IMG/VR virus record: IMGVR_UViG_3300036760_001400
Length of the DNA stretch: 64,000 nt
Strand: one strand, 5' to 3'
Source of the DNA: an uncultured virus (IMG/VR IMGVR_UViG_3300036760_001400)
Taxonomy: Duplodnaviria; Heunggongvirae; Uroviricota; Caudoviricetes
Positions 3,995 through 61,620 of the stretch are shown here, piece by piece. A program made the position numbers and the translations under genes. Under the pieces are notes generated by a model. It had not been told where the DNA came from. It was given only the letters and a program-made list of their open reading frames with translations, and did not search any database. The stretch's first letter is position 1. Each line of letters opens with the position of its first letter.

Positions 3995-4278
3995 ACCATT
4001 CGTTGGATGTGAAGAAGCGAGCCATTCGAATGTCGAGGGCTTTCAGCCAGGCGGTGACCTTCAAGCTGAGGGTTCTGGGGAAATCATTCTCCTGGCTGGC
4101 TAAAAAATCAAACGTCTCAAGAGCCAACGTCTCCTTTCATATGTCCGGAAAGAAGCCGGTGACAATGACGACGATGGCGAAGTATGAGAAGGCTCTAGGG
4201 GTTACGTGGCTTATCGTAGCCTTTAGTCCCGAAGGAGAAAAAACCCGAGGATCACCAGCCCGACGCCTCCGGCGATGA
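3991..4278 (+). CDS. XRE/Cro-like helix-turn-helix protein
   Basis: SFSWLAKKSNVSRANVSFHMSGKKPVTMTTMAKYEKALGV fits the XRE HTH pattern. Confidence 0.75.
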   Translation: MNHSLDVKKRAIRMSRAFSQAVTFKLRVLGKSFSWLAKKSNVSRANVSFHMSGKKPVTMTTMAKYEKALGVTWLIVAFSPEGEKTRGSPARRLRR

Positions 4279-5062
4279 ACAAAGGGTTGATGCTGCTGGA
4301 GGTTTCAAAGGGGGCGATTGTACCGGAGCTCGTAATCACGCCAGAATTGTCCGGTACATAAGGACCTGGAGACCCCGGAAGAGTCGATGCCACTTTGGCC
4401 AGCGTATCCTGCTGCTGAGGAATCGTCATGGCAACGAAGCTGTCGCGGCTGACCCCGTGCTCTTCCATGCTGGGTTTATTCTTATCGTAAATGACGATGT
4501 TCAGAAACCGCGTCTTGTCCTCGATCGACAGCTTCCCCCACTTATCCGGAGTCATCTGGTATGCGGAAGTGAAGTAGACTTCCCCGCTCTTGTAAGCCTT
4601 GTCGAGGGCTTTATTGGCTTCAGCATTCGCGACGACTTCTTCTTTGGCTATCTCAGCTTCTTCACTGGCGGAGACCTTCTTCATCTTCCTCTTTGCATCC
4701 TTGGCCTGCTTCATGGCAATAGCCGTAGCAGCCGCGCTGATGGCCAGGCTCACGAGAACTCCAAGTCCTGGAACGAGAAGGTTGAGGACCTGGGCTGCGA
4801 TGGAAAGGAAGGGGGCAGCCTTCAGGAAGAACTTCGTTGTCATGTACCTGCGGATGGGAGGAGGCAGCTTCTTTACGATTCTCCGGTGAAGCTGCATGGT
4901 AGGTTGGAAGGCCTGCTTGAGCCTGTCTTTGAACGATATCCCAAGGCCATCGATATCAGACAGCCCGGAGAACAAGGCAGGGCGGGAGACAATGAGGCTC
5001 AGGACATCATGATCGCTGAGCCACTCGAGATTCTCGAACCCCTTGTTCTCAAGGACAATCAA
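4223..5062 (-). CDS. putative virion membrane protein
   Basis: likely TTG start coupled to the upstream TGA; internal hydrophobic segment; C-terminal TM (FIAGGVGLVILGFFLL); DGLG motif. Confidence 0.6.
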   Translation of the reverse strand: MIVLENKGFENLEWLSDHDVLSLIVSRPALFSGLSDIDGLGISFKDRLKQAFQPTMQLHRRIVKKLPPPIRRYMTTKFFLKAAPFLSIAAQVLNLLVPGLGVLVSLAISAAATAIAMKQAKDAKRKMKKVSASEEAEIAKEEVVANAEANKALDKAYKSGEVYFTSAYQMTPDKWGKLSIEDKTRFLNIVIYDKNKPSMEEHGVSRDSFVAMTIPQQQDTLAKVASTLPGSPGPYVPDNSGVITSSGTIAPFETSSSINPLFIAGGVGLVILGFFLLRD

Positions 5063-5607
5063 GCCTTGGCCTTCCTCTTCTTCCAGTAGATGTATCCACC
5101 GATGGCAATGGCAACCGCGCCTCCAACCCACAAGGTCCAGTTCGACCCGGTCATTTCCGTAGGGGCAAGAGTGGGGGAACCTTTCTTCTTTGGCGTGGGA
5201 CCGGTATCAGCGGCAGGAGCCTGACCGCCCTCTTCCCCTTCCTCGCCCTCCTCGGGAGCTCCCTCTTCTTCAGAGGCTTCTGGGTAGGAATCGGGAGCGC
5301 TGCCGCCTCCTTTAGAACCTCCGCCACCCCCAGAAGGCCCAGACGGATCGTAGTAAGGCTCTGGAGCGGGATTCAGAGTCTCGTCCACTGCGACCGATGC
5401 TCCGCCACCACTATGCTTCTTCTTCTGTGGGCGGATCAGCCTGTGAAGAGGGTTTATCTTTCTGTGCATCTTCGAGAGCATGCGAAGAGGGGAAAGTTTC
5501 TTGAGCTTCTTGAAGAAGCTCTTCTTCCCAAGTCCTTCCGCCTCTCCAGCCTCGCCGAGACTGTAGAGGGCGAACTGTTCGAGTCCCATGTCTTCCCGGA
5601 TGACCAT
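5059..5607 (-). CDS. putative virion membrane protein
   Basis: EGLG then a basic amphipathic segment, acidic/Gly linker, C-terminal TM and basic tail. Confidence 0.65.
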   Translation of the reverse strand: MVIREDMGLEQFALYSLGEAGEAEGLGKKSFFKKLKKLSPLRMLSKMHRKINPLHRLIRPQKKKHSGGGASVAVDETLNPAPEPYYDPSGPSGGGGGSKGGGSAPDSYPEASEEEGAPEEGEEGEEGGQAPAADTGPTPKKKGSPTLAPTEMTGSNWTLWVGGAVAIAIGGYIYWKKRKAKA

Positions 5608-5615
5608 GACGCCTC

Positions 5616-6452
5616 CTAGATGACGTTAACCCTGATCTTTTCTGGACGGATGATCTTACCACGCCTGGCTCTTGCCCCAACCTGGGCCAGCACAAAAAGA
5701 AGCTCGTCGGCAAGGTCGTGAGCCGTACGCTCGTTGACCGATCCTTCCAAAGCCTTCTTCCTGAACTTCTCTATAACGGAGGAAAGAATGATCCGGGCAC
5801 CCTGAGGAATGTCCCCAGCCGTGGCCGCAAGGGCGATATTTTCAAGGAGGGTCAGAAGATCGCGCTTCATGCCTTCCTTGAAAAGGCGTTCACTCTCGGA
5901 CCTCTCGACCGCGATCCCGAAATCGATGATCACCGCGCCTGTCGGGGTGAGGAGGATGTTCCTGGCTTCCAGATCTCGGTGGGCAATGCCCTCCGTGTGG
6001 ATCTTAGAAACCATGAGTGCCGTCGCGACGACGACGGAAAGGATTTCCCTTGCCTCAAGCCCTTTCTTGGAGAGGATCTTAAGCATCGATTCCCCAAGAG
6101 CATCCTCTTGGACAAAATAGTCCGATCCCACCTCGATCAGGCGCGGGATGAAAGGAAAAGCCTGAAGCTTGCCAAGAATGACGAATTCCCTGTAAAGCGC
6201 CTCGTAAGCCTCTCTCATCGAGACAACGCCCCGCTCCCCGTGGGCTGTCTTGACAATGACCTTATCCCTTCCGAGGATCGCCGAATAGGCTTTTCCGAAG
6301 GACCCCTGTCCAAGGAACTTGATGTCCTTGAATCTTCTCTTGGACTTCTCCCAGGGATACTCCGCCCTTTCCACCTTGGGCAGATTGATCCTCATCCTGG
6401 GCATGGCCTGCCCAAGGAGCGGTATAGCGGTAATGGCGGCCATATCAGGCAT
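5616..6452 (-). CDS. Hanks-type Ser/Thr protein kinase
   Basis: LGQGSFG loop, VIVK, HRDLEARNILL catalytic loop, DFG. Confidence 0.9.
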   Translation of the reverse strand: MPDMAAITAIPLLGQAMPRMRINLPKVERAEYPWEKSKRRFKDIKFLGQGSFGKAYSAILGRDKVIVKTAHGERGVVSMREAYEALYREFVILGKLQAFPFIPRLIEVGSDYFVQEDALGESMLKILSKKGLEAREILSVVVATALMVSKIHTEGIAHRDLEARNILLTPTGAVIIDFGIAVERSESERLFKEGMKRDLLTLLENIALAATAGDIPQGARIILSSVIEKFRKKALEGSVNERTAHDLADELLFVLAQVGARARRGKIIRPEKIRVNVI

Positions 6453-6711
6453 CGGATACCGTCCGCTTCTTACGAATGCTGACGATGACTACGATGCCGA
6501 TGAGCACGACCCCGGATCCAATGATGTATGGAAGGTAGCTCATCCACCCGTCAGCTTCTCCCGCAGGAGCGATTCCGGGAATCGAGCCGTCTTTTGCAAC
6601 TCCCCCGGGAGCCGGGATTGAGAAGGGCGACTTGATAGACAGGGGGAGAGCCGACTTCTTTTTCTTCTTCCCGAAGAGATTCTTGAGCGAGAACCCAAGG
6701 TCGTCCATCAC
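6445..6711 (-). CDS. small membrane protein
   Basis: DDLG-FSLK N-terminus; C-terminal TM followed by RKKR. Confidence 0.65.
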   Translation of the reverse strand: MMDDLGFSLKNLFGKKKKKSALPLSIKSPFSIPAPGGVAKDGSIPGIAPAGEADGWMSYLPYIIGSGVVLIGIVVIVSIRKKRTVSDA

Positions 6712-6716
6712 CTCTC

Positions 6717-7193
6717 CTAGTCGCCGAAGAGAAGCCAGGTACCCACAAGAAGGATTATAGCTCCCCCGATGATAAGATACTCCTTCGGAATGGGCTCAGT
6801 GACCACATGAACACCGCTTCCGCAGGAAATGAGAGTTTTCCCGCTGTCATCAAAGCTCGTGGTAAGCTTCACTGACTTCATGAAGTACTCACCCACCAGC
6901 AGCTGGACATTCGGAATACTCACCGATCCAACCATGACGGGGACCGGTTTCGACGGGGACCCCAAAGAACAACCGGATACTCCTGTGATGGAAATGTTGT
7001 CCACGGTGGACTTGAATCCCACATCACTTCCGGCAATCCCGTTATAGCCTACCGCTTCACCCGTAAGCAGCCCAAGCTGACTGGCGATAGACTTATCGAT
7101 AAAGGCAAAGGTCTCCGCTCCCGTGTCATGGAGGGCGCGGGCAGATATGCTTCGACCTTTGTACGTGATCGTGACCGGAAGGGTGATCTGCAC
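6717..7193 (-). CDS. retropepsin-like aspartic protease with C-terminal membrane anchor
   Basis: ALHDTGAE catalytic motif, LLVGEYFM motif, C-terminal TM. Confidence 0.8.
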   Translation of the reverse strand: MQITLPVTITYKGRSISARALHDTGAETFAFIDKSIASQLGLLTGEAVGYNGIAGSDVGFKSTVDNISITGVSGCSLGSPSKPVPVMVGSVSIPNVQLLVGEYFMKSVKLTTSFDDSGKTLISCGSGVHVVTEPIPKEYLIIGGAIILLVGTWLLFGD

Positions 7194-7196
7194 GCT

Positions 7197-7421
7197 TTAG
7201 AAGAGGCTTGCCTCTTCTTCAGCAGCTCCAAAACCCTTCATTTCATTCGCCTTCATCTTGGGACTTCCGGAAGCCATCAAGGCTGCCTGACGCCCCTTCG
7301 GAACATACCGGAACTCGGAATTCACGATCTTCACATGCCCCCAAACGTGAGCGACCACCTGCCCATTTCCGTTGAGGATGACTCCGGGATGACGACCCCT
7401 GCCTTCAAGACCGATAGCCAT
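7197..7421 (-). CDS. hypothetical protein
   Basis: AAAGGAG SD; KGFG motif near the C-terminus. Confidence 0.55.
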   Translation of the reverse strand: MAIGLEGRGRHPGVILNGNGQVVAHVWGHVKIVNSEFRYVPKGRQAALMASGSPKMKANEMKGFGAAEEEASLF

Positions 7422-7436
7422 GGTGCAATCTCCTTT

Positions 7437-7799
7437 CTATTTCTTAACCCTAAGCATCTTGATCTGTTTCTTGATCGAATGAAGACCTTCTGTTCCATGA
7501 TTCATGGCCGTCATGATGGCCAGCATCTCATCGCACTTCATAAGAGGGAGGATCTTCCCGATCTCCATCATGGCGATCTTACCATCAAAAGATCTCTTTC
7601 CGTGACGGTTTACGATGAGCGCCATCTGAACCGCCTTCTGACCGGCCCATGAGAACTTCGGAAAGAGCATGTAGATGTTCTTTTCATCCTGATGCGAGGA
7701 GCACCCAACCAGTGATTTCATGGCCTTGCCGCTGATGACGGTCCCCTTGGAAAGCTCAACCAAGGCTCCAACCAGCTCAAGTTTCCTGAGTGCTTTCAT
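7437..7799 (-). CDS. hypothetical protein
   Basis: ATGA-coupled ORF in the operon. Confidence 0.55.
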   Translation of the reverse strand: MKALRKLELVGALVELSKGTVISGKAMKSLVGCSSHQDEKNIYMLFPKFSWAGQKAVQMALIVNRHGKRSFDGKIAMMEIGKILPLMKCDEMLAIMTAMNHGTEGLHSIKKQIKMLRVKK

Positions 7800-8032
7800 G
7801 GACGTTTCCAGATGTCGTAGAACATCTTGACGGTCGTGACTCCGAAGAAAACAAGAAATCCAACCGTCAGACCCTGCTGCAGGCCTTCTTTACGAAAGAC
7901 CGAGTATCCGGCAATCGTACCTGAAATGACACCGGACGAAAGAAGGCCAAAAGCATCGCCTGGATTAGAAGATACGGAAGTAGCCTTAACGGCGGGGTCA
8001 CCCTGGGAAAGACCCGCCTTGAACATACTCAT
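7796..8032 (-). CDS. small membrane protein
   Basis: two hydrophobic segments. Confidence 0.55.
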   Translation of the reverse strand: MSMFKAGLSQGDPAVKATSVSSNPGDAFGLLSSGVISGTIAGYSVFRKEGLQQGLTVGFLVFFGVTTVKMFYDIWKRP

Positions 8033-8647
8033 CTATCCACGCTTCCTCATCTGAATCGCGCGCTCCTGTCGGATGGCCTTCCGCTTGGACGAGTGCCGGC
8101 CCAGGACCTTCTTTCCCTTGGAATCCATGAGACACCACTTCTGAGAGCGCCTGGGACGGCTTTTCCTGATCTGCTTGGAGTCACATGGCTCGATAATGCC
8201 AAGCCATCCCAAGCCATCCATGATGTTGTTCTGGTACTTCTTCCAGATGATCCACCCCACGACTCCTGCGATCCCAAGTGGAATAGCCCACTTCAGGACC
8301 GTGTCCACGCTGGTTGAGGCAATCGAAGGTCCTCCGCCAGCCGGAAGATTAAGGGTGACCATGTTGTCCCGGGCTTCATTGGTCGATGAAACCGTAAGCC
8401 CATGAGCTGTCACCACATTTTCCATTCCGGGAACGGCGACCGTGATCGAGCTGACCTTTGGAATCAGGAACGAAGCTACGATGATCCCGTTTCCATCGGC
8501 AGTGCCCCCTTTGACCTTCTTTCCGTCATCATCCAGGAAGGAGACGGGCCCGGAGTAGGGAGCTCCTCCACGGGTGATCCTGGCCGCGAGGAAGGACGTG
8601 TAGCCCTCCCCCTGGTCAAGGCCTGAGATTTCCATGATTTCACCCAT
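8033..8647 (-). CDS. membrane protein: beta-rich ectodomain, TM, basic C-terminal domain
   Basis: TM WAIPLGIAGVVGWIIW; DGLG; basic tail KWCLMDSKGKKVLGRHSSKRKAIRQERAI. Confidence 0.6.
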   Translation of the reverse strand: MGEIMEISGLDQGEGYTSFLAARITRGGAPYSGPVSFLDDDGKKVKGGTADGNGIIVASFLIPKVSSITVAVPGMENVVTAHGLTVSSTNEARDNMVTLNLPAGGGPSIASTSVDTVLKWAIPLGIAGVVGWIIWKKYQNNIMDGLGWLGIIEPCDSKQIRKSRPRRSQKWCLMDSKGKKVLGRHSSKRKAIRQERAIQMRKRG

Positions 8648-9242
8648 TAGGCGTTCTCCTTGCCTTCCAGTAGTTCATGATAACGGGTATGAGAAAGTAC
8701 GCAGCTACGAATGTCCCGACTCCAGTCAAGGCAAGAATCCATGACGGATCGATACCTTTATCCACGCCAGACGAGACGGGTGTTTTCTGTGGGTTGGCTG
8801 GAAAAGATTGAGAAGGGGGAGGGGCTACAGCAGAAGGTTGCTCATTAAGACCTCCGCCCGGCTTCAGAACGATATCAACAACGCTTGATCTATTTGAACT
8901 GAAGGTAAAGGGTACCTGCCAGATGATGGCCCGGTTAACCGGGCCATCTGGATACTGAAGGAGCGGTGTTATTGATACCTTTCGTTCCTTGAATTCAGAG
9001 CTTGGAACATTGACTTCAAGAAGGCCTTGATCGTCTGTCGTTACCCTATAGGAATATTCATAGGATGCGTTATACCCAGGAGGGGCGTAAACGTCAATCC
9101 AGAATGGAGCATTGGAGACAACGGCCCCCCTTGGATCCTTGACCCGGAACATGACGTACATGTACGACGTGTCCCTGAGTCCAAGAACCCTCTCGGAACG
9201 ATCAAAGGCCGTCTTCACTACTTCCTCAGGAAGAGGGCCCAC
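8640..9242 (-). CDS. membrane-anchored beta-sandwich protein
   Basis: FRVKDPRGAVVSNA...TTDDQG resembles a prealbumin-like fold; C-terminal TM. Confidence 0.55.
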   Translation of the reverse strand: MGPLPEEVVKTAFDRSERVLGLRDTSYMYVMFRVKDPRGAVVSNAPFWIDVYAPPGYNASYEYSYRVTTDDQGLLEVNVPSSEFKERKVSITPLLQYPDGPVNRAIIWQVPFTFSSNRSSVVDIVLKPGGGLNEQPSAVAPPPSQSFPANPQKTPVSSGVDKGIDPSWILALTGVGTFVAAYFLIPVIMNYWKARRTPNG

Positions 9243-9457
9243 GCCAGGATTCCAACCCCAAGCACCCCCACCGTAATGGGAACCCAGTCGATCGTAGTCG
9301 ATGTTGGGGCAAGGGTGGCGGGCATCAGGGGCCCAGATGGCGTTGAATCAGGCTTCCTAAGCGTCAGCAAGGCTTCCTTTACCTTGGAGAAAGCGTTTCC
9401 AACTCTATCGGAAACCCCTAGGCCCGAGAACTCGAATGTATCGTTGACCCGGAGCAT
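9218..9457 (-). CDS. small membrane protein
   Basis: FSGLG motif; C-terminal TM. Confidence 0.6.
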   Translation of the reverse strand: MLRVNDTFEFSGLGVSDRVGNAFSKVKEALLTLRKPDSTPSGPLMPATLAPTSTTIDWVPITVGVLGVGILAWALFLRK

Positions 9458-9469
9458 GGCATCCCCTTG

Positions 9470-9775
9470 CTAAGAAACAGCCGCGGGAGCAATCGCGACA
9501 TACACTCTCCTCGCACGCTCCACCTCTTGGGCCATGCCTGCCCCGAACTCTATTTCAAGTACTCCAAGTATCTTTGAGGCCTCGCGAGCCTCCTTCTTGG
9601 CGTGTTTATAGTAGTTCCTCGCCCACTGGTCTTTCCCGGCCCCTCTGGCTTCCCTGTATAAGGAAGCTAGTTTCTCCGCTTTCGTAAGAGTGGCAACAAG
9701 CCTTGCCTTCCACACGTCAATGGCGCGGACTTCCTCTCCAAAGTCAGAATCCGAGACTCGAGGAATCCGAGCCAA
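9470..9775 (-). CDS. hypothetical helical protein
   Basis: GAGGAG SD; starts MARIPRVSDSDFG. Confidence 0.55.
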   Translation of the reverse strand: MARIPRVSDSDFGEEVRAIDVWKARLVATLTKAEKLASLYREARGAGKDQWARNYYKHAKKEAREASKILGVLEIEFGAGMAQEVERARRVYVAIAPAAVS

Positions 9776-9789
9776 TTACCCGCTCCTCG

Positions 9790-10260
9790 TTACGCGAGGA
9801 CCCGGTTGGCAAAGCCAACGATCGCCATTCCGCCGGCCACAACGCCCATCCCGTTGGCAAGGTTCTTCAGGTTGCCCTTCAGGAAGTAGGCGCCGCCGAG
9901 GAGGGCAGCCGCCGCAATGAAGCTGCTCCATTGCGCCATGGGCGAATCACCGAAGTATCCCATGCTCTCGGTGTCGGGGATCCGGACCGTGCCCATGCTC
10001 TCGGTGTCGGGGATGCGAACGGTCCCGAAATCGGAGAGGGGGTTCGAAGCGTAGTCTCCGCGCACGACGCCGGGGAACATGACATTGTCCATACCGAAAA
10101 GCTCCTCAGAACTCCCACCATAGGGATTGTTAGGATCCTGGCACGACTCCTCAAACGCATCCGACGGGCAATACGTCATGCGTGCTCCGGGCACGCGACC
10201 TCCCCTGGGGTGCGTCTGACCCAGGTTCGACCACACGGGGGTTACATCGTTGACAACCAT
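9790..10260 (-). CDS. putative virion membrane protein with tandem TVRIPDTESMG repeat
   Basis: 33-nt tandem repeat at about 9960-10026; two C-terminal hydrophobic helices. Confidence 0.65.
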   Translation of the reverse strand: MVVNDVTPVWSNLGQTHPRGGRVPGARMTYCPSDAFEESCQDPNNPYGGSSEELFGMDNVMFPGVVRGDYASNPLSDFGTVRIPDTESMGTVRIPDTESMGYFGDSPMAQWSSFIAAAALLGGAYFLKGNLKNLANGMGVVAGGMAIVGFANRVLA

Positions 10261-10289
10261 GACGCTTCTCCTAGAAAACAGAAATACAG

Positions 10290-10493
10290 TCAATAACCGC
10301 AACAAGACTCATTTTCGTCATGCTTCTTCTTGGTCTCCGCGATCAGGAGATCAATGTACTTCTTCAGCGCGCTTTCCTGCTCCCCGCTGAGCTTCCCGCT
10401 CTTGAGAAGGAGGAAAAGCTCGCTGATCTCAGTTCGGATCTTGTCTTCAGCCTCCACGCTTGCCTGAACCGTACGCCTGAGTGCGGTAGCCAT
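10290..10493 (-). CDS. hypothetical protein
   Basis: TAATG coupling to the upstream gene. Confidence 0.5.
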   Translation of the reverse strand: MATALRRTVQASVEAEDKIRTEISELFLLLKSGKLSGEQESALKKYIDLLIAETKKKHDENESCCGY

Positions 10494-10747
10494 TAGCGGC
10501 CCCCTTCCTTATCCTTGTCAAACTCGTTACGGAGTGTCCGTAGAAGCGCCAACTGAGCCTCCGTAAACTGTTTTCGGTCTTCCTGACATTTCTGAAGATC
10601 CTTGTACAGTTTCGCGATCACCCCTCCAAGGGTAAGGATGAAACCAGCCATGGCCGTAATAATGATCCACGAGTAGTTATTAAGGTCAGGCTTCTTAGAC
10701 TCCCCATCTACAATGAAAGCAAATATCGTACCAAAGATGTAAGACAT
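10493..10747 (-). CDS. small membrane protein with coiled-coil tail
   Basis: TM WIIITAMAGFILTLGGVIAKL followed by a heptad-like helix. Confidence 0.55.
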   Translation of the reverse strand: MSYIFGTIFAFIVDGESKKPDLNNYSWIIITAMAGFILTLGGVIAKLYKDLQKCQEDRKQFTEAQLALLRTLRNEFDKDKEGGR

Positions 10748-10749
10748 TG

Positions 10750-11112
10750 TTATTCCTCATCTTCCTCTTCCCCGGCGTCATCCTCTAGATCCTCATCCTC
10801 GACGCCTTCTTCAGCATCATCAAGATCACCATCCTGACCGTCATCATCTTCATCGAAATCATCTTCCTCTTCATCATCGATATCGTCGAGATCATCGAAA
10901 TCCCTGCTCTTATTCGAAGAGGCAGAAGAGAGTGCCCAAGCCAGGATCCCAAGCCCCCCAAGGCCAAGAATGATGGCAAGGGGCATGGGCACCCCAAAAA
11001 CATTGGGGGGCTGAGGAGCCTGCTGGAGCGATGAAAGCGGAAGGGCTTGGATCGGGAGATTGATTCCGGACTCATCTTCCATGCTGTTACCGTAGTCCCT
11101 GAACATAGTCAT
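10750..11112 (-). CDS. membrane protein with poly-acidic tail
   Basis: single TM then about 45 mostly D/E residues. Confidence 0.65.
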   Translation of the reverse strand: MTMFRDYGNSMEDESGINLPIQALPLSSLQQAPQPPNVFGVPMPLAIILGLGGLGILAWALSSASSNKSRDFDDLDDIDDEEEDDFDEDDDGQDGDLDDAEEGVEDEDLEDDAGEEEDEE

Positions 11113-11154
11113 CTTTCGTCCCCAAAAAAAATGGGACCTATGGAATTATACACG

Positions 11155-11856
11155 CTAAGGCTTAGAAAGGGCACTTCCAGCTGAGTGAACAAGGCCGATG
11201 GTTCCGATACCGCCCATGATGAGGGCAATGACGCCAAGCCCCTGCCTGAGCATCTTATCCTTCACCATGGGAGCCCCAAAAAATCCAAGCGCAGCCCCGA
11301 TACCGGTCATGAGAACGGAATCGATGAGCATCTCCTTGGGGCTGCATGGAAGAGCGGGTGCAGCCTGCCCCATGAACGGTCCAGGGTACGCCTGGTAAGC
11401 CACTTCAGAAGGATCTCTGTAGAACATCAGGGGGTCATCACCCGACATCCCACCATACTTCCAATACTGGGCGGGACCACGATAACCAGAACGGGAACGG
11501 AGAATCTGGTCTCCACGATCCTGGATCCTGGGGATCCGGTCTTCAAAATCGATGTTCTGAGTGTCTGCGGGAGCGGGATAGACTCCAGGAAAGACGTTTG
11601 TCGCTTCGGGCCCAAGGGGTGTAAGGGGCGTGATTTCCCCCTCATTCATGAGAACCTGCTCCCCGGGGTTAACCCAGGAAGTCTTGATTCCCATAGGCAG
11701 CCCGTCATAGGGCGCCAACGAAGGCCGCATCCCAGCTTTTCTAAGTGCCGCTTCCGTTGAATACTGGTTAACATCATTCTCAACTCTAAGCTGTCCGAAT
11801 GATGCCGTGCCTTCAGAAATACGAATCATTTGATCATGTTCCTTTCGTGAGGGCAC
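11155..11856 (-). CDS. putative virion membrane protein
   Basis: SFGQ and FMGQ motifs; two C-terminal TMs. Confidence 0.6.
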   Translation of the reverse strand: MPSRKEHDQMIRISEGTASFGQLRVENDVNQYSTEAALRKAGMRPSLAPYDGLPMGIKTSWVNPGEQVLMNEGEITPLTPLGPEATNVFPGVYPAPADTQNIDFEDRIPRIQDRGDQILRSRSGYRGPAQYWKYGGMSGDDPLMFYRDPSEVAYQAYPGPFMGQAAPALPCSPKEMLIDSVLMTGIGAALGFFGAPMVKDKMLRQGLGVIALIMGGIGTIGLVHSAGSALSKP

Positions 11857-11961
11857 TGCCCATAGAAACCTCTAGCAAGATTGCAATTATGGCAGAGTAC
11901 CCGAAATTCACTCGGGCTGTATCAAGCCTTAAGCTCTTCTCAGACTCTGTAAGATACCAGA

Positions 11962-52499: not shown

Positions 52500-52527
52500 C
52501 CCGGCTCCCCCTTTCGGGGGAGCCGGG
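52500..52527 (-). terminator. 12-bp hairpin downstream of the putative MCP gene
   Basis: CCCGGCTCCCCC/GGGGGAGCCGGG with GAAA loop on the - strand; no U tract. Confidence 0.5.
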
Positions 52528-52591
52528 ACTTGACTCCACATGGACAGCTACTTCATGTCTCAGTCGGCCGGCAATCAAGCCGACCTGACGG

Positions 52592-54621: not shown

Positions 54622-54795
54622 ACAAAACTCCTGAAACGTTCGACGGGTTGTAAGCGGGTTATCCCGTCAATCCCGCATATACCCAATCTCCAGCTGATCA
54701 GGCTGGAGAAAGAGATCATCTTTCTTTACCAGACGAAGCCCGTTTTTCAAAGATCCATGACGATCTTTCCATCGCCATGTACAACCAATCAATAT

Positions 54796-54870
54796 TGGTA
54801 GCGAGTCTTGGAGTCGCACCAGGTCCTCCGGCTTATGAAACCGGCGAAGCACCTCGGCTTCCGACTCGCG
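54796..54870 (-). tRNA. tRNA-Met (CAT), initiator-like
   Basis: acceptor GCGAGT/ACTCGC with 1:72 mismatch, anticodon arm CCGGT-TTCATAA-GCCGG, T-loop TGCGACT, encoded CCA. Confidence 0.85.
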
Positions 54871-54890
54871 CTATCTATCACAGAGCAAAC

Positions 54891-54925
54891 AAAAAAGGCC
54901 CGGAGAGCTTTCGCTCTCGGGCCTT
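54891..54925 (-). terminator. intrinsic terminator between the promoter and the tRNA/MCP
   Basis: GGCCCGAGAGC-GAAA-GCTCTCCGGGCC followed by TTTTTT. Confidence 0.75.
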
Positions 54926-54962
54926 GTGTGCCCCGCGTTGGACCTGTTGTCCCTTGGTGATG

Positions 54963-54990
54963 ATTATACGGTATGGCCGGTTAAGATCAA
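54963..54990 (-). promoter_or_regulatory. sigma70-type promoter
   Basis: TTGATC-16-TATAAT. Confidence 0.55.
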
Positions 54991-55014
54991 GAACTAAAAT
55001 GAAAGGAGAGCGTT

Positions 55015-55428
55015 ATGCGATTCACGGTAAACTTCGACCCGAAAAACCTCAGCGTGAAAAAGCCTGAATTCGAGGTAGAGAATTTCTTCATCATTCCCGG
55101 CTCAAGGATCGAAAATCTCAAGGAAGGCTATGGTCTGAAGATCTCCAGCATGGTCTGCATCCGATGTGAACGCGATATCATCCAGATCTCCGCATGTTCA
55201 AACGGAACCGGAAGTCTCGTGTGCCAATGTTCCTACTGGTCTTCCGATATATCCCCTTTCAGTGGGACAGCCCATGTCCAGGGGAGCTTGAAACACGAGT
55301 CTATCATGAGTGTCGAACAAAAAGCAGAGATGCTTCTCAGAGAGCTTACGAACGATCGCGACAATATCTATCAGGAAAGAAAGGGATTCACCCCTGAAGT
55401 CCGCAGAGCTCTCAAGGAGCTTCTTTGA
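55015..55428 (+). CDS. Cys-containing hypothetical protein, divergent from the capsid operon
   Basis: AAAGGAG SD; CIRC...CQC. Confidence 0.6.
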   Translation: MRFTVNFDPKNLSVKKPEFEVENFFIIPGSRIENLKEGYGLKISSMVCIRCERDIIQISACSNGTGSLVCQCSYWSSDISPFSGTAHVQGSLKHESIMSVEQKAEMLLRELTNDRDNIYQERKGFTPEVRRALKELL

Positions 55429-55443
55429 TCACGGCATGAGTAG

Positions 55444-55478
55444 AAAAAGAAAGGGCCCCCCTTTCGGGGGGCCCTTCT
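55444..55478 (-). terminator. intrinsic terminator between convergent genes
   Basis: GGGCCCCCC/GGGGGGCCC stem with a U-rich tail on the - strand. Confidence 0.7.
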
Positions 55479-55498
55479 ATCTACAAGCCCTGGAGGCT

Positions 55499-56815
55499 TT
55501 AGAACATCGCCGAGTCTTCGCTCGGCTCCTCGTCCCCTACGTCACCCAGGAGCTCCTCCTCGGTCACGATCCGCTGCCCGACATCGCTGACATCCCGGAG
55601 TTCATCCTGATCCGGAATGCGGGCCTGCGAAAGGTAACCCAGGTCGCGGAGTTCATCCTGGTCGGGAATCCGTGCCTGACCCAGACCGAACCCGGAGAGA
55701 CCCGGGATCTTCGGAAGGACATACGGCTTGACGAGCTCATCCTCGATGAACCGGCCGAAAGCGTACATCGCGCCGTACTGAGCCAGATTCCCGGACCCGA
55801 CGAGCCGGCCCAGCTCCCACGAGCCGACCGCCGACAGCGCCACGGGCGCGAACCTGGACAGAAGACCCATGATCCCCGGATCAGCGGGCTTGAGGAACGT
55901 GAGCATCCCGGTCAGTTTCTTCGCCGCCGCCGTGATGATGGGCGAGAGAGAAACGCCGCCGAGAGCCTCAAGACCGGACATGGAGGCAGCCATCTGGAAG
56001 GGCCCGACGATCGGCATGGAACCGGCCACCGAAGCGTCGGCGAGGCCAGCCATCATGCTCGAGTATCCGAGACCCTTGAGACCGAAGAACGACCCCAGGC
56101 CGCCCATCTTGCGACCGCCACGACGGCTACGACGCCGGGTGGAACGAGCCCGACGACTCCCACGACGGGAACGACGGGTCCGACGGGCCGCGCGATGACG
56201 ACGACGGGTCGCCTTCGCCTTACGACGGCTCTTCCGACGCTTCTTGTGGGACCCAAGGCCAGACAGGCCCTTGAGAGCCGCAAGCGTCTGGGACAGACCG
56301 CTCATGCGACGACGACGACCGCTGGACTTCCGACGCTTGTGACGACGGACCTTCGGTGCCGAGATCTTCGCGATGGTACGGGCAGCCGACTTCCGACGCC
56401 GACGGCTCCGACGCTTGGTCTTGGGAGCCTCGACAACAACCTGGCGATGACGCCGACGGCTGCTGCGACGACGACGGCCATGGACGCGAACCCGACGCGA
56501 ACGACGGGAACGCCGACGACCATGGGCGCGAACCCGACGGGAACGCCGACGGCTCTTCGACCGACGATGGCGCCGACGGCTCTTGACCCGACGAGCGCGG
56601 CCACGCGACCGATGCTTACGGCCCTTCCGACTCTTACGGCCCTTACGAGCCTTCCGCGTGCGACCGAGGCCTACATAGCCAAGGCCGTCCTCATCGTCCC
56701 CGTAATCACCGAGGCCGGAGAGGTCCGTGTCCAGGACATCCATGGGATCCATCTCATCGAGATCGATCTCATCTTCCCAGACAGGAGCGGAATTCGACAG
56801 GAGCTTCTTGGACAT
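55499..56815 (-). CDS. Arg/Ser-rich putative DNA-condensing core protein precursor
   Basis: AGGAG SD before MSKKLL; acidic N-terminus, about 180 aa of Arg-rich tracts punctuated by GLG/GLS, hydrophobic region, QARIPDQDELRD twice. Confidence 0.7.
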   Translation of the reverse strand: MSKKLLSNSAPVWEDEIDLDEMDPMDVLDTDLSGLGDYGDDEDGLGYVGLGRTRKARKGRKSRKGRKHRSRGRARRVKSRRRHRRSKSRRRSRRVRAHGRRRSRRSRRVRVHGRRRRSSRRRHRQVVVEAPKTKRRSRRRRKSAARTIAKISAPKVRRHKRRKSSGRRRRMSGLSQTLAALKGLSGLGSHKKRRKSRRKAKATRRRHRAARRTRRSRRGSRRARSTRRRSRRGGRKMGGLGSFFGLKGLGYSSMMAGLADASVAGSMPIVGPFQMAASMSGLEALGGVSLSPIITAAAKKLTGMLTFLKPADPGIMGLLSRFAPVALSAVGSWELGRLVGSGNLAQYGAMYAFGRFIEDELVKPYVLPKIPGLSGFGLGQARIPDQDELRDLGYLSQARIPDQDELRDVSDVGQRIVTEEELLGDVGDEEPSEDSAMF

Positions 56816-56905
56816 GTGTAATTCTCCTGGAAAACCACCTGCAAAGGGCGCTAAGCCCCAGGACATCCGTTCGAAGACGGCCCCAAACAAGGGGACATCT
56901 CAACG

Positions 56906-57247
56906 CTAGATCGGGGCATGAACCCGGTGATTCTCGGCCTTGCACCTATGGCACGTCGTCAGGAATTCCCAAGGCCCTTCTGCCTTAAGCTCTCCCAGGA
57001 AATGCTCACAAGCACGGCACGTGAGTCGGGTCGAACCCTCAAGCCTGGTCTTCCGAGGTCTTTTAGGAAGAGGCCTGTCGGATGTCCTTGGTTCGGATCC
57101 GGAGCTCACATTGGCCTGAGGCGCAGGCATCTTCTCAGGCTCCGGGCCAAGTACGTCCTTCGCGTCTGCTTTCTGCGAGACCTCACCATCAACAACTGGA
57201 TCCGGCTTCACGAAGAGCCCTTTCTGGCCCATAAGAGCCACTTTCAA
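56906..57247 (-). CDS. protein with C-terminal Com-like zinc ribbon
   Basis: LTCRACEHFLG...TCHRCKAEN resembles the Mu Com pattern. Confidence 0.6.
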   Translation of the reverse strand: MKVALMGQKGLFVKPDPVVDGEVSQKADAKDVLGPEPEKMPAPQANVSSGSEPRTSDRPLPKRPRKTRLEGSTRLTCRACEHFLGELKAEGPWEFLTTCHRCKAENHRVHAPI

Positions 57248-57307
57248 CCGGGCTCAACTACAAGCCCCTCTTCGCTACCAGACCCTTTACGGTCTCTCTG
57301 GATATTG

Positions 57308-57335
57308 ATTATAGCGTGAACGGTTTTCTACGCAA
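57308..57335 (-). promoter_or_regulatory. sigma70-type promoter
   Basis: TTGCGT-16-TATAAT. Confidence 0.5.
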
Positions 57336-57341
57336 GAGGAA

Positions 57342-57878
57342 TTAAGACAACTTCGATAAAACAACCAGGAAGGAATATCGGTCTGGTCCTATATCCGGCT
57401 CAAAAAGATCGATCGAAGTCTCTTTTAGCTGCTCGAGGTACCACATGAACACTTCCATCGTCAGGAAGTGGGCGTGAGCTGGATTCCTGACCTTTGGATT
57501 CGCGGGATCGTACTTGTAATGGACCTCGCTCGGCAGGTAAAGGATCATCTTTCCACCTGGCTTTACGAATGAAAGCCAGTACCTGAGGGTTTCGAGTATA
57601 GGGTTCTTCACATGCTCCAGTGCATGGCTCGAGAAAAGGACATCGTAGAACTGAGGTCTCTTTGAAACGAAAAGCTCATGGACAAGAACACCGGAGTGAT
57701 CAGGATCGATAGGAGACGCGATATCGATAGATGGAGGCTTCTTCGACCACTCCCTGGCGTCATCCACGCCGACAGCCCACGGTACGATCTTGGTGCCCCC
57801 GCATCCCAAATCGAGAACACTCTTTCCTTTGAGATAGGAAAGAACGCGTGGAAGAATCTTCTCGCCTTCAGTGGCCAC
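57342..57878 (-). CDS. class I SAM-dependent methyltransferase
   Basis: VLDLGCG, FSSHALEH, VKPGG. Confidence 0.85.
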   Translation of the reverse strand: MATEGEKILPRVLSYLKGKSVLDLGCGGTKIVPWAVGVDDAREWSKKPPSIDIASPIDPDHSGVLVHELFVSKRPQFYDVLFSSHALEHVKNPILETLRYWLSFVKPGGKMILYLPSEVHYKYDPANPKVRNPAHAHFLTMEVFMWYLEQLKETSIDLFEPDIGPDRYSFLVVLSKLS

Positions 57879-57886
57879 TTTCCGTC

Positions 57887-59455
57887 CTACGTGTAGAATC
57901 GTCTGGGAGAAATACCTTTAAGCTGGTATTCCCGGACAGAAGTCTCGCTTTCCGAGATCACCTGAGCAGGCTCAAGCTTGTCCATACAGTAGACCTTGTC
58001 CCTGAAGCATCCTGTCGTGACTCGTGGAGCTTGAAGGTAATGGTTGCATCCGAGGCAGCCGACATTTTCCGCCATCACACCACGAAAGTATGGAGTATCC
58101 GGAGGAAGCCTGTAAGCAGGATCAATACATCCAAAGACCGCTGCGATGGGAAGGTCAGCTGCAACCGCCAAGTGCATCGGAAACGAATCGATTCCAATAT
58201 AGAGAGAAGCCCGCCTCATCAGGCATGCCAGCTGATGCATGGTTGTCCGGTTCCTGAGATCAAGGTCACAGGGTACGGAGTTGTTGAGAATGAATCCGGT
58301 GAGTACCGTGAAGTAACCCTTTTTACGCCAGTAGTTCACGACTTCCGCGAACTTTACGTTGGTCCAGTTCCTCCCGACCCAGGCCGTGGGTCCAGGATTG
58401 ATGATCAGAATCGGCCTTCCCCTTGGAACGGTGGCATCAGCCCAACGGTCATCGTCAGAAGTCGGAAAGACCTCTGGAATATAGCTATCCAACTTGACGT
58501 CACAGGCTTCTGCATAAGCCTTGACGATATGGATCATAGGCCGGCGTTCATAGGCGAAGTCAAGGTCGTAGAAGTGGTCGTAGTTGGTGATGGGAAGCCT
58601 GAAACCGTTCTCGAGACGATCGATATTGGGGTTACGGGTCACGATATCCGGGAATCCGGTGATAAGCGAAATCTTCACATCAGGCCACTTCTTCCTGAGA
58701 GACCTGAAGATCGGGGTCACCAGAAGGACATCCCCGGTAGCTGAAGTCCTTCGGATCAAGACCGTCTTTGAGAAACTTCTCCGTTCAAGATAGTTCTTCC
58801 ACTGGTTCTTGAATATGGCCGCATTCCTGGCCTTGTATCCATCGAGATCAACGGTCTTTTTGACGAGTTCGGAAGTCTTTGATCCATGATGGAGGAGCTT
58901 CACATCGGCCTGGGAGATCAAGTAACCGGCTTCCCTCATCCGAAGCGAATAGTCCGCGTCCTCGTTATAAGCGAACCGATATATATCCAGGAAGAGCCCA
59001 TGCTTCCTGGCAAGGGAAACGGGGGTCATGAGACATGAACCCTCGATATATTCGACAACAGTTCCAGGGCATCCGACCCCTTCCTTTGTCAAGGCGGAAC
59101 ACTGGCCTTTGGTTCCTACGACAGCAACCTTCGGATCACTGAAACATGCTCCCATGGTCGTGAGCCAGCTTGGAGGGACTTCGACATCATTGTTAAGGAC
59201 AACGAAATACTCCCCCTTGGCCATCAGGAGAGCGTTGTTATGGGGAACCCCAAATCCAAGATTCTTCTCGTTCCGAACAACAATGACCCTGGGATCCGCT
59301 AAAGCCAGAGCATCCAGATAATCCAGGGTATCCTTCTCCGAAGCATTGTCCGTGACAATCAGCTCGAAATCAGAGCTATGCTTGAAAATGGAATCAAAAC
59401 ATCCCCGGGTGAATCCGAGGAGATTATGAACCGCGACAGAGATGGAGTATTTCAG
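57887..59455 (-). CDS. GT2 + GT9 fusion glycosyltransferase, probable CTG start
   Basis: frame stays open upstream of ATG 59224 as KYSISVAVHN...IVTDNAS...NLGFGVPHN; GT9 motifs GDVLL, IGIDSFPMHLA. Confidence 0.85.
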   Translation of the reverse strand: MKYSISVAVHNLLGFTRGCFDSIFKHSSDFELIVTDNASEKDTLDYLDALALADPRVIVVRNEKNLGFGVPHNNALLMAKGEYFVVLNNDVEVPPSWLTTMGACFSDPKVAVVGTKGQCSALTKEGVGCPGTVVEYIEGSCLMTPVSLARKHGLFLDIYRFAYNEDADYSLRMREAGYLISQADVKLLHHGSKTSELVKKTVDLDGYKARNAAIFKNQWKNYLERRSFSKTVLIRRTSATGDVLLVTPIFRSLRKKWPDVKISLITGFPDIVTRNPNIDRLENGFRLPITNYDHFYDLDFAYERRPMIHIVKAYAEACDVKLDSYIPEVFPTSDDDRWADATVPRGRPILIINPGPTAWVGRNWTNVKFAEVVNYWRKKGYFTVLTGFILNNSVPCDLDLRNRTTMHQLACLMRRASLYIGIDSFPMHLAVAADLPIAAVFGCIDPAYRLPPDTPYFRGVMAENVGCLGCNHYLQAPRVTTGCFRDKVYCMDKLEPAQVISESETSVREYQLKGISPRRFYT

Positions 59456-59463
59456 AAAACCGT

Positions 59464-59985
59464 CTAGAGAGATTCTGGAGCAATGTCGGAGAAAGAAGAC
59501 GGAAACGACGGGCGCTCCGGATCAGCGGGATATGCTGCATGGGCAATATAGTCCCCAACACCGACGGCTCCGCGATAATATCCATCATGGATGACCGTTC
59601 CATCCTGAACGATAGCCTCGGCTTTACTCGCAGATTCTTTGGCTGCTCCGAGAACTACCAAGAGAGCCTGGTTATCCGAAACTACAATCCTCTTCATGCT
59701 CCAAACCCACTCCTCTACAGCCTTGGGCTTCAAAGATTCCATCGCCTTCTCGATTCCGTCTTTCACAAGGTTCTTACGGCTTTCCTTACGCTCGTTCCAC
59801 GCTTCACCTTCAGACCCCGGGAGATTTTCAAGAATCTGAGGGAGCATGGAAACGAGAGCCTGGGTCATCGGATCCACGCGAGCTCCACCGACCATACGGG
59901 TTCGCTTGACAGGTTCCCTGTAGGATACGATCATCCCCTGGTCAAGAAGCTCGATTGAGACTGTGGAACGCAGCTCATAGTGCAT
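59464..59985 (-). CDS. hypothetical protein
   Basis: AAGGAGGT SD; 173 aa. Confidence 0.65.
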   Translation of the reverse strand: MHYELRSTVSIELLDQGMIVSYREPVKRTRMVGGARVDPMTQALVSMLPQILENLPGSEGEAWNERKESRKNLVKDGIEKAMESLKPKAVEEWVWSMKRIVVSDNQALLVVLGAAKESASKAEAIVQDGTVIHDGYYRGAVGVGDYIAHAAYPADPERPSFPSSFSDIAPESL

Positions 59986-59994
59986 GATACCTCC

Positions 59995-61620
59995 TTAAAA
60001 CTCCAAGTCCATTTTCTTAAAAATCACCGGACTCTGCCATCCCAATTTAGCTCCAGAGACAGTTGGATCGCTGGCAATCCATGGAGACCGTTCCGTAGGT
60101 TTCGCGACCACATATACGTGGGTATACTGCTCGGGTACTTCAGGATTTGCAGCAATTGCACGCGCTCCTACACCTGGGAAGCCAACCATGAGCAGCATGG
60201 CTCCTTCAAGCATGGTCTTATCGTCGCAGTTATGCTGAACGAGACCTTCCTCGGTAACCACATTGTGATTATCAAGAACGGTGATATCGCAACACTCGGC
60301 CTCTCCAGCCTCTTCAAACTTCTTAAGAGGAGCAGGAGCAAGGTCGGTAGAAACAGGCTTGTAGCCCCTGATATTTTTCCGCTCGATCAACCTCCAGATA
60401 GGAGAATGGCCAGCTCCCATATGGTTCATCTGGAGATACGGATGGAGTGTCCGTCCCATAACCAAATGAACAAGGCAAAGCATCCTGGCCAAGTGAGAAG
60501 AAGACGTGTTATGGATCAAGTTTGCATACTTAGCCCAAGCATGTTCGTCCTTGGGTTTGTAGGCATCTCCCAAAGCATAACCATCGATCAGAGCCTCGAG
60601 TTCAGACCTGGTCTTCGAGAGATAGTCCTCAGGAATCGTCTTCTCAAAAGACCCGCGTCCAAACTTCCTGAGGATCTCTTCTCGGAAGGCGTGATTCGAG
60701 GTACGCATGACCTTGACGCCATTGGACTGATGGGTCACGTAGTAAGGAACTCCGATCCGACCCATCGCGTCCGTAAGGAACGAAAAGAGAACAGGATCCT
60801 TGATCCCGATCGAAACGCGCTCATGGTTTCTATGATTCTTTTCATACCACCCTTCGGCCAAGTACATTCCTTCGATAAAGAGCCTGTCCGAAGTGGTCGC
60901 ATCAACGGAACCAAGCTCAGGAATCTTGAGAGCAAACGGAAGACGAGGAGCTCTCTTGTCTGTGAAGGACGAGAAGATCTCGTTAGCTCTTGCCTCCCGC
61001 TTACCAGGGCTCTTCCCTGAAGCCAGGAAGTAATCCATAAGATGCTGACTCGAGACCCTGAGTTCACGCGCGTTCTTCGTCCTGAGCTTGTATGTCTCCT
61101 TCACTCCCTTGTCATACCAGGCCACGATCGGCTTGAACTCAAAGGAGCTGATACCATAGTTGTACGAAAGAGCGTCATACTCGGCAAAGGAACCTTCGAG
61201 TTCACCGAGGCGCTTCACTCGATACGTATTATCGAGCTTCCTACGAAGGATAACCTTCGTATCTTTCTGGAAAGCATCCCCTCCTCCGATCATGAGCGTC
61301 CGGGCCGGCCAGACGAGCGTCTCGTGCTTCCGAGCATCACGCGTCCAACGGATATCGTCTCGAACAAAATCATGGATAGCCTTGTACTCACCAAGAAAAT
61401 CCTTCGGACGGACGCCGGCCTTCAGGATCGTGGCAATGGCCGCCTCACGGATGACCGGTCCATGCTCAGGGTGACGGACACTTTTCCAGACGATCTCTTT
61501 CATCCGGATCAGCGTGGCTTTCGTTCCCTTGTCTCCCCCTGGAATGGGAGTCAAGGTAAGACGTGAAGGAGGAAGAACACCAAGCCGGGTGGCTTGGGCA
61601 AGATTCCACATACGTGCCAT
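59995..61620 (-). CDS. transglutaminase-like cysteine protease containing an intein (192 aa after splicing)
   Basis: exteins join as GGGD-CDDK; THVY and SDPT complete a Cys-His-Asp triad; HDFVRDDIRW...D motif. Confidence 0.8.
   Translation of the reverse strand: MARMWNLAQATRLGVLPPSRLTLTPIPGGDKGTKATLIRMKEIVWKSVRHPEHGPVIREAAIATILKAGVRPKDFLGEYKAIHDFVRDDIRWTRDARKHETLVWPARTLMIGGGDAFQKDTKVILRRKLDNTYRVKRLGELEGSFAEYDALSYNYGISSFEFKPIVAWYDKGVKETYKLRTKNARELRVSSQHLMDYFLASGKSPGKREARANEIFSSFTDKRAPRLPFALKIPELGSVDATTSDRLFIEGMYLAEGWYEKNHRNHERVSIGIKDPVLFSFLTDAMGRIGVPYYVTHQSNGVKVMRTSNHAFREEILRKFGRGSFEKTIPEDYLSKTRSELEALIDGYALGDAYKPKDEHAWAKYANLIHNTSSSHLARMLCLVHLVMGRTLHPYLQMNHMGAGHSPIWRLIERKNIRGYKPVSTDLAPAPLKKFEEAGEAECCDITVLDNHNVVTEEGLVQHNCDDKTMLEGAMLLMVGFPGVGARAIAANPEVPEQYTHVYVVAKPTERSPWIASDPTVSGAKLGWQSPVIFKKMDLEF
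60229..61275 (-). mobile_element. intein, 349 aa, with LAGLIDADG-type domain and Ala at position 1
   Basis: block A AFQKDTKV, block B LRVSSQH, GMYLAEG and GYALGD, block F CCDITV..NHN, C-terminal HN then Cys. Confidence 0.85.

Follow-up and report, generated by a model that had tools for sequence, protein, structure and literature searches.

In a 64,000-nucleotide stretch of DNA from an uncultured bacterial virus (IMG/VR record IMGVR_UViG_3300036760_001400; hereafter the window, part of a 147,886-bp, ~148-kb contig), we observe that the tripeptide Gly-Leu-Gly (GLG) is strongly overrepresented in two blocks of mostly family-less proteins, the second of which also encodes an intein-interrupted enzyme with a transglutaminase-like fold and a Cys-His-Asp triad. 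On balance, and with modest confidence, we favor the reading that this enzyme matures the virion as a cysteine protease, cutting at or next to hydrophobic-x-G-[L/F]-G motifs; the virion itself probably contains a membrane. A protease reading had been put forward in an earlier note on the same DNA. In its favor are the fold and triad, the association of motif and enzyme, the motif at fusion junctions and the match to the adenovirus consensus, whereas the motif as first defined is too loose, its -GQ variants are not specific and the proposed N-terminal bias is not significant.

The structural set comprised 43 proteins (8,633 amino acids) from the blocks at 4223-22343 (block A) and 47494-63738 (block B), with expected counts taken from 1,000 rounds of per-protein shuffling and, in addition, from shuffling inside blocks of 10 to 25 residues. 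GLG occurs 29 times in these proteins against 5.9 expected, a count reached by 0/1,000 shuffles, and the local-block shuffles, with an expectation of 7.2-8.4, do not reach it either (0/1,000). The excess is present in block A (18 versus 4.0 expected) and in block B (11 versus 1.8), each at 0/1,000 shuffles, while words of the same composition are rarer (GGL, 10; LGG, 6), and GLG tops an unbiased ranking of every tripeptide (Poisson P = 2e-11; runner-up, 2.7e-5). The 21 enzyme and non-structural proteins that served as controls contain 1 GLG against 2.6 expected, and five collagen-like proteins contain 0 against 9.2. The comparison of structural with non-structural proteins that the earlier note had proposed as a check, and the comparison with a composition-matched background, both come out in favor of an enrichment: the motif is real, and composition does not account for it.

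With 4 of the 29 GLG set aside because they lie inside hydrophobic stretches, 25 sites were analyzed, and in 15 of these Met, Leu, Ile or Phe stands two residues ahead of the first Gly (background 0.21, P = 2.7e-5). The sharpened form [LMIF]xGLG is found 17 times in the blocks against 1.3 expected (controls, 0 versus 0.5), and [LMIF]xG[LF] is found 49 times against 19.3 (controls, 11 versus 11.4). The definition in the earlier note, [G/S/D]-[L/M/F]-G-x, was too loose: its 16 quoted examples are all present in translations of minus-strand open reading frames (ORFs), and the form [GSD][LMF]G is itself enriched (59 versus 27.1, 0/1,000 shuffles; controls, 14 versus 13.0), but the sharper form is hydrophobic-x-G-[L/F]-G. 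The variants ending in -GQ, which had been counted as part of the motif, were rejected as not specific, since control proteins show the same excess of [LMFI]GQ (10 versus 2.4). The claim of more than 20 motif-bearing proteins holds for the loose form only (26/43 proteins with a site outside membrane segments, against 20/43 for G[LMF]G and 15/43 for GLG), and the claim that the sites lie mostly near N termini is weak (12/25 in the first 84 residues, only 3/25 in the first 30; P = 0.74).

The pattern is replicated in relatives of the window. Locus L004 (enzyme 62% identical) and a 58.7-kb contig from a metagenome-assembled genome (MAG; G001:C3, hereafter C3; enzyme 75% identical) are syntenic with both blocks, block A with C3 561-16223 and block B with L004 and with C3 22156-32974, and lack the sugar and collagen genes that stand between the blocks in the window. 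C3 alone contains 26 GLG against 7.8 expected (0/1,000 shuffles; GGL 7, LGG 6). Across 10 metagenome and IMG/VR loci (one near-duplicate removed), the proteins from the enzyme gene onward contain 43 GLG against 15.8 expected (0/1,000 shuffles), compared with 2 against 5.0 in the upstream replication genes, and nine MAG contigs, a pool that excludes two chromosomal contigs and one archaeal contig, show 25 versus 11.5 downstream of the enzyme (2/1,000 shuffles) and 6 versus 9.3 upstream. In the pooled relatives GLG is the third-ranked tripeptide (P = 4e-8), behind RRR and AAA. We observe that the enzyme family and the motif mostly travel together, and since scans of the small relatives (57 proteins against PHROGs; 94 proteins from six loci against Pfam) detected no other protease family, retropepsin included, the transglutaminase-like enzyme is the only recognizable candidate that accompanies the motif there.

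These small, more distant relatives (enzyme 32-42% identical) are 14-17-kb contigs that have in common with the window the enzyme and a pair of neighboring conserved proteins (about 215 and 150 amino acids), both without a match in Pfam, PHROGs or the PDB. They encode a protein-primed family B polymerase, a single-stranded DNA-binding protein, and lysozymes or SLT transglycosylases, the lysozymes arguing for bacterial hosts. One of them, L001, is probably a complete linear genome, as its 15,658 bp end exactly in a 142-bp inverted terminal repeat; it encodes the protein-primed polymerase, the transglutaminase-like enzyme and a phage lysozyme, and neither a Walker-A packaging ATPase nor a recognizable capsid protein was found in it. 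A Walker-A scan of the small relatives likewise found no obvious packaging ATPase.

With respect to the enzyme itself, profile, catalytic order and fold all place it in the transglutaminase-like superfamily. PF01841 (cut-off 23 bits) scores above cut-off in homologues P0010 (30.2), P0009 (25.0), L015 (41.3), L024 (38.5) and L021 (31.9) and below it in P0001, P0004 and P0006 (16.6-21.1 bits), and the window ORF has no match, its domain being split by the intein. All of the 22 family members compared, down to 33% identity, keep Cys116 and His152, and position 169 is Asp in the clade of the window and Glu or Asp elsewhere among the 22 sequences, giving a Cys-His-Asp order on a papain-like core. 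An AlphaFold2 model of P0001, to which the window exteins are about 85-87% identical, reached a predicted local distance difference test (pLDDT) score of 90.6 with the 22-sequence alignment, superseding a model from a shallow 10-sequence alignment (pLDDT 55.4). Foldseek returned 15 PDB chains at E <= 0.001 for this model, all of transglutaminase-like fold, with LapG (4u65_E, 4fgq; E 3e-5, template modeling [TM] score about 0.5) and the putative protease 3isr at the top, followed by PeiP, PNGase, Rad4, CPR-C4 and true transglutaminases (TM about 0.5). The transglutaminase 4xz7, TglA 9crn and a trypanosome transglutaminase-like domain are also among the matches, and no adenain or Ulp1 chain is among those listed. 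A profile search against the PDB also put LapG first (4u65_E, E 0.003); the BTLCP/LapG family PF06035 itself had no match in a Pfam search with five homologues at E <= 0.1, which returned PF01841 and one weak PAS_3. The family comprises 805 cluster representatives at E <= 1e-30, 4,884 at <= 1e-10 and 14,200 at <= 0.001, the last count necessarily taking in members of the wider superfamily.

Both the enzyme, a transglutaminase-fold Cys-His-Asp protein, and its intein agree with the earlier description from the sequence alone. Ten intein-free homologues (189-207 amino acids) match the first 118 residues, which cover the N-extein, at 57-87% identity and align with the window protein before and after one 349-residue insertion, which separates GD from the catalytic CDD and is absent from 10/10 of them. 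The insertion lies directly ahead of the catalytic Cys465, the intein +1 residue, and shows the marks of an intein in being precise and in frame, in ending with His-Asn and in being followed by a nucleophilic Cys; its Pfam matches are weak and below cut-off (Intein_splicing, E 9.8e-4; LAGLIDADG_3, E 5e-3). As the intein begins with Ala, its splicing would have to start with a non-canonical step. The conserved virion module of this clade is unusually rich in homing-endonuclease-type ORFs, which are placed differently from genome to genome.

The only cultured contact is SSIP-1, described as an icosahedral phage that contains a membrane and has two types of major capsid protein (PMC6356626, PMC6260650). 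Among 50,697 GenBank phage records, SSIP-1 alone gave a match to the enzyme, through its gp34 (tblastn 6e-14, 34% identity). This protein keeps the Cys, His and Asp, and the SSIP-1 record labels it structural with no function assigned. It is probably also the best structural match among viral models (304-amino-acid entry, E 5e-10, TMq 0.68). A GMG (residues 211-213) follows the gp34 enzyme domain directly, and G[LM]G stands near the N termini of gp36, gp37 (residues 34-36), gp52 and gp53 (residues 31-33); G[LMF]G is the one form that is raised in SSIP-1 (13 versus 6.6, reached by 18/1,000 shuffles). SSIP-1, a tailless, membrane-containing phage, resembles the window lineage in having a homologue of the enzyme and differs from it in that, beyond gp34, no gene is clearly common to both. 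The block proteins of the window are putative virion proteins, a designation derived from synteny and from the structural annotation of gp34.

The position of the motif next to the enzyme domain is a further line of evidence. Among the best 150 representatives of the enzyme family, 42 are longer than 240 amino acids, and of the 38 such fusions scored, 16 carry [LMIF]xG[LF] within 65 residues after the enzyme domain, the motif being denser there (0.0069 per residue) than over the remainder of the extension (0.0012; P = 2.7e-8). Many other fusions have close variants of the motif at the domain junction. In one family of orthologues, the conserved tail-anchored part is preceded by an N-terminal part that ranges from 0 to ~300 residues, and G[LF]G aligns exactly where the two meet, one member having GFG in that column. 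Furthermore, the N terminus MITIPEGMG of a tail-anchored protein of block B is identical in 4/4 homologues that are otherwise 40-51% identical, and it is the longest invariant run in their alignment.

The Arg-rich protein of block B, a candidate core-protein precursor, had been singled out in the earlier note for its many copies, and these we also find. Its sites, at residues 59, 69, 74, 211, 264, 273, 400 and 402, bracket two Arg-rich stretches and precede QARIPD repeats, and those at the border of the acidic leader with the Arg-rich part, at the border of the Arg-rich with the hydrophobic part and at the start of the repeats recur in L004 and C3.

We also note a repeated unit ending in RIPD (QARIPDQDELRD) that follows GLG sites at 55499-55700 on the minus strand. 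It recurs as TVRIPDTESMG in a second protein (9970-10090, minus strand), likewise after GLG sites, and the C3 orthologue has four to five GLG/GMG-Q-[AE]-RIPD repeats. The Arg-rich proteins of the small relatives L001, L002, L005, L015, L021 and L025 (e.g., L015:9826-10428) share a conserved N terminus …L[IV]NPRKRR. Asn-Pro recurs within their basic stretches, the middle of the protein is hydrophobic, and the tail is acidic and contains GLG or GMG.

Under the maturation-protease reading, small and often tail-anchored proteins, together with the Arg-rich protein of DNA-binding type, would be made as precursors that carry the motif with its GLG core. Removal of the intein would join GD to the catalytic Cys and thereby activate the enzyme, which would then cut at or beside the motifs, strip N-terminal leaders of variable length and, in the fused relatives, free itself from its own membrane-anchored extension. 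The Arg-rich precursor would yield basic peptides of roughly 120 and 50 residues and a hydrophobic domain. That the motif is cut, that this enzyme is the cutter, the scissile bond (GL|G, as in adenovirus, or after GLG) and the timing are all matters that we infer.

Several observations weigh against this reading. The fold is also used by cross-linking transglutaminases, PNGase and glycanases, cell-wall isopeptidases and phage pseudomurein endoisopeptidases, and the window enzyme is predicted to need intein splicing for its activity. The bias of sites toward the first 30 residues is not significant in the window (see above) or in relatives (8/38, P = 0.26), and since gene starts were taken from the longest ORFs, the positions of motif sites are upper bounds. 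Only 8/25 sites keep G-hydrophobic-G at the aligned position in C3 orthologues, part of these 8 resting on gapped alignments; with the enrichment kept, this implies turnover of individual sites at a preserved motif density. In relatives the preference at the hydrophobic position is less marked (12/38, P = 0.063), the strict junction motif is absent from 22/38 fusions, and there is no GLG excess in L005 (1 versus 1.4), L042 (0 versus 1.7), L036 (0 versus 0.4) or SSIP-1 (4 versus 4.0). In addition, a switch from acidic residues before the site to basic residues after it is striking in single cases only and was dropped, not being significant across sites (Wilcoxon P = 0.39 and 0.79).

An enzyme of this fold and triad could instead be a transamidase, of transglutaminase or sortase-like type, with the motif marking proteins for cross-linking or for attachment to a lipid or capsid amine; we regard this as unlikely. 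The Foldseek matches 4xz7 and TglA 9crn fit such an activity, and acyl-enzyme chemistry is common to transglutaminases and proteases, but proteases head the matches by both fold and profile. Transglutaminases use Gln as the acyl donor, and this residue follows 12/26 GLG in C3, yet it does so at only 2/25 window sites and is not among the commonest next residues in the small relatives, and the [LMFI]GQ excess is equal in the control proteins. The N-terminal parts ahead of the motif are variable in length and not conserved, which fits their removal.

To a second possibility, that the motif is an unprocessed structural or assembly signal (a hinge, docking peptide or packaging tag) and the enzyme a virion-borne cell-wall endopeptidase acting at entry or lysis, we likewise assign a low probability. 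The phage pseudomurein endoisopeptidases PeiP and PeiW have the same fold, and gp34 of SSIP-1 is structural, as entry lysins are; the relatives, however, already encode separate lysozymes or SLT transglycosylases. The low positional conservation (8/25) would suit an unprocessed signal, but the motif is found repeatedly just behind the enzyme domain and brackets the Arg-rich segments in the manner of a polyprotein. A hinge should tolerate the three residues in any order, whereas neither GGL nor LGG is enriched.

It is also doubtful that the motif is a cleavage site for a different cutter, either the retropepsin-like proteins of the window (15400-15780 and 6717-7193) or a host protease, with the transglutaminase-like enzyme doing something else. 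Both ORFs have DTGA, and that at 15400-15780 matches PF13650 above cut-off, lies inside the motif-rich block A and has a 66% identical orthologue in the syntenic C3 (9250-9618). No retropepsin-like gene was found in the small relatives by PHROG and Pfam scans, though, and GLG is enriched downstream of the enzyme there; retropepsins usually favor hydrophobic residues around the cut, unlike a Gly motif; and the motif at fusion junctions points to the transglutaminase-like domain itself. The paralogue at 6717-7193 has a C-terminal membrane anchor (hydrophobic segment 137-158). Two retropepsin-like ORFs are unusual for a bacterial virus.

That the enrichment is an artefact of chance or composition, through Gly/Leu-rich membrane segments (4/29 GLG in hydrophobic stretches) or wrong gene calls (longest ORF and codon score only), is extremely improbable, given that neither global nor local-block shuffles reach the count, that the permuted words are 3 to 5 times rarer and that the result is replicated in three independent genome sets.

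Nearly all genes of the window, from 4223 to 63738, are on the minus strand (Table 1), and profile scans covered 70 ORFs against PHROGs and 79 against Pfam. Apart from the recognized genes, ~43 ORFs of the two blocks match no Pfam or PHROG family, and the only trace of a prohead serine protease profile in these scans is a marginal match of 13296-13901 to phrog_1752 (E 9.4e-4, without a significant stretch). A megablast of 44505-64000 against GenBank phages gave no nucleotide match, and a scan of IMG/VR with the 290-amino-acid protein at 51046-51918 found no relatives. In 13/43 block proteins a hydrophobic segment lies within ~30 residues of the C terminus, mostly with basic residues after it, so that these have the look of tail-anchored membrane proteins. 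The C-terminal hydrophobic helix (4223-22343 and 47938-50043; at least 13/43 proteins) often opens with Gly-Gly, as in IIGG, IAGG and YGGGG, and, together with the basic tail, it resembles sorting signals as much as plain tail anchors. The kinase gene is embedded among small membrane proteins. The glycosyltransferase/aminotransferase/epimerase island and the five collagen-like fibre genes (up to 1,345 amino acids; 22365-47296) are missing from the syntenic C3, where the two conserved blocks are adjacent, and the island therefore looks like an accessory insertion.

Two conserved adjacent proteins of block B are candidate capsid proteins. The 170-amino-acid protein has homologues in L004, L001, L002, L005, L015, L021 and L025 and no match in Pfam, PHROGs or the PDB, with the ESM Atlas giving only unnamed viral clusters. 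The second gene is intact in L004 (197 amino acids) and L035 (185 amino acids), whose orthologues locate its pieces in the window by tblastn at 54302-54168, 53184-53131 and 52963-52595. The first split is a 983-nt insertion with a LAGLIDADG_2 endonuclease ORF (53187-54137; PF03161, E 1.9e-25) and a stop codon ahead of it, the second an insertion of about 167 nt; Rfam detected no group I intron in the split gene. Profile searches of the PDB with the two families gave nothing credible. A link to gp46 and gp47 of SSIP-1 (hmmsearch E 0.011 and 0.0014 in a 22-protein database) was not established, the hhalign probabilities being 1.6% and 17%.

Table 1. Coordinates of the enzyme gene, its parts and other features (window coordinates unless a locus is named).
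Feature	Coordinates	Strand	Details
Transglutaminase-like Cys-His-Asp/Glu enzyme gene	59995-61620	-	541 codons, intein-interrupted
N-extein	61276-61620	-	Residues 1-115, ends GGGD; from alignment
Intein	60229-61275	-	Residues 116-464; starts Ala, ends His-Asn; LAGLIDADG-like region
C-extein	59995-60228	-	Residues 465-541; Cys (CDDK), His (THVY), Asp (SDPT)
Homing-endonuclease-type ORFs	L004 275-862 and about 10450-11270; window 53187-54137 and 60229-61275		
Block A	4223-22343	-	32 small proteins, many membrane-anchored; 18 GLG
Block A, motif-bearing examples	14849-15403, 9218-9457, 5059-5607, 4223-5131, 12228-12737		4 sites in 14849-15403
Block A, further motif-bearing examples	15783-16061, 8033-8647, 19964-21253, 16500-19967		
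Ser/Thr kinase gene	5616-6452	-	Protein kinase domain PF00069, E 1e-16
Retropepsin-like aspartyl protease (DTGA)	15400-15780	-	PF13650 E 2.8e-9, 38.0 bits, cut-off 24.3
Weaker retropepsin-like paralogue (DTGA)	6717-7193	-	PF13975 E 2.4e-3, below cut-off
Sugar/glycosyltransferase island	22365-32375 and 57342-59224		Pfam/PHROG scans
Five collagen-like fibre proteins	34762-47296		Pfam/PHROG scans
Block B	47494-63738	-	11 GLG in 11 proteins; conserved module that encodes the enzyme, the Arg-rich protein, both putative capsid proteins (also conserved) and proteins with tail anchors
Tail-anchored protein	49090-50043	-	First nine residues MITIPEGMG invariant
Conserved 170-amino-acid protein, putative capsid component	51945-52457	-	Common to 15-kb relatives
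Second conserved putative capsid gene	52592-54296	-	Three pieces, three frames
Arg-rich protein, candidate core-protein precursor	55499-56890	-	7 GLG + 1 GFG

The consensus of the adenovirus protease is described as (M/I/L)XGX|G or (M/I/L)XGG|X, for example IVGL|G, with basic core proteins among those processed (PMC4246237). The window motif [MLIF]xG[LF]G is a subset of the (M/I/L)XGX|G form, as a sequence pattern only, and as a pattern it is what the blocks contain ([LMIF]xGLG, 17 versus 1.3; P4-like M, L, I or F at 15/25 sites). The adenovirus enzyme (AVP, or adenain) is a cysteine protease packaged with the particle that has many substrates and a short Gly consensus, while the window enzyme has a Cys-His-Asp/Glu order on a transglutaminase fold and no known DNA or peptide cofactor, would belong to a virus of a bacterial host and would cleave in a comparable way. 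Adenain has a different fold and a His-Glu-Cys catalytic order. Since fold and catalytic order differ, the window enzyme is not an adenain, and the likeness would be one of function and not of membership.

Among solved structures, the best match by profile and by fold is LapG, which is described as a cysteine protease of transglutaminase-like type whose cut at a di-alanine takes off an N-terminal module (PMC10990149). It resembles the window enzyme as a Cys-His-Asp protease that, in that description, cuts at a pair of small residues, and it differs in an identity of only 14-17%, in being cellular and periplasmic, in having a single class of substrates and in its di-alanine site. The known maturation proteases are serine enzymes in tailed phages and adenain-like cysteine enzymes in adenovirus, poxvirus and African swine fever virus (ASFV). 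In the former (T4 gp21, phiKZ gp175, HK97 gp4), one prohead protease trims many head proteins at a short consensus and removes N-terminal leaders; these enzymes differ from the window system in being serine proteases of assemblin or ClpP type with Glu-based motifs. ASFV pS273R and poxvirus I7 belong to eukaryotic viruses and have a Ulp1/adenain-like fold; they too are cysteine enzymes, and they process polyproteins of the virion at GG|X or AG|X. A literature search returned no maturation protease described for membrane-containing or tailless bacterial viruses, nor, in a search that did not include the original SSIP-1 paper, a link of transglutaminase-like enzymes to phage or SSIP-1 maturation.

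If the reading is right, the system would probably be new, both in the fold of a virion maturation protease that recognizes a consensus site and in the very large virus lineage that uses it. A bolder version, which we think improbable, extends an adenovirus-like maturation to the whole lineage, from 15-kb linear genomes with protein-primed polymerases to the ~148-kb contig, with SSIP-1 as its sole cultured contact; a transglutaminase-fold protease would be packaged, would recognize a hydrophobic-x-G-L|G consensus and would cut Arg-rich precursors to DNA-condensing peptides, and in its boldest form it would be a transpeptidase that hands the cut proteins covalently to the membrane or capsid. 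For the maturation protease as such, a true result would give a function to a family of 805 representative clusters (E <= 1e-30) and to SSIP-1 gp34, and it would supply a simple rule by which the mature forms of virion proteins could be predicted from sequence across thousands of metagenomic viruses. It would place an adenovirus-type consensus and the processing of basic core proteins on a different protease fold in bacterial viruses and, in doing so, would bear on the evolution of virion maturation.

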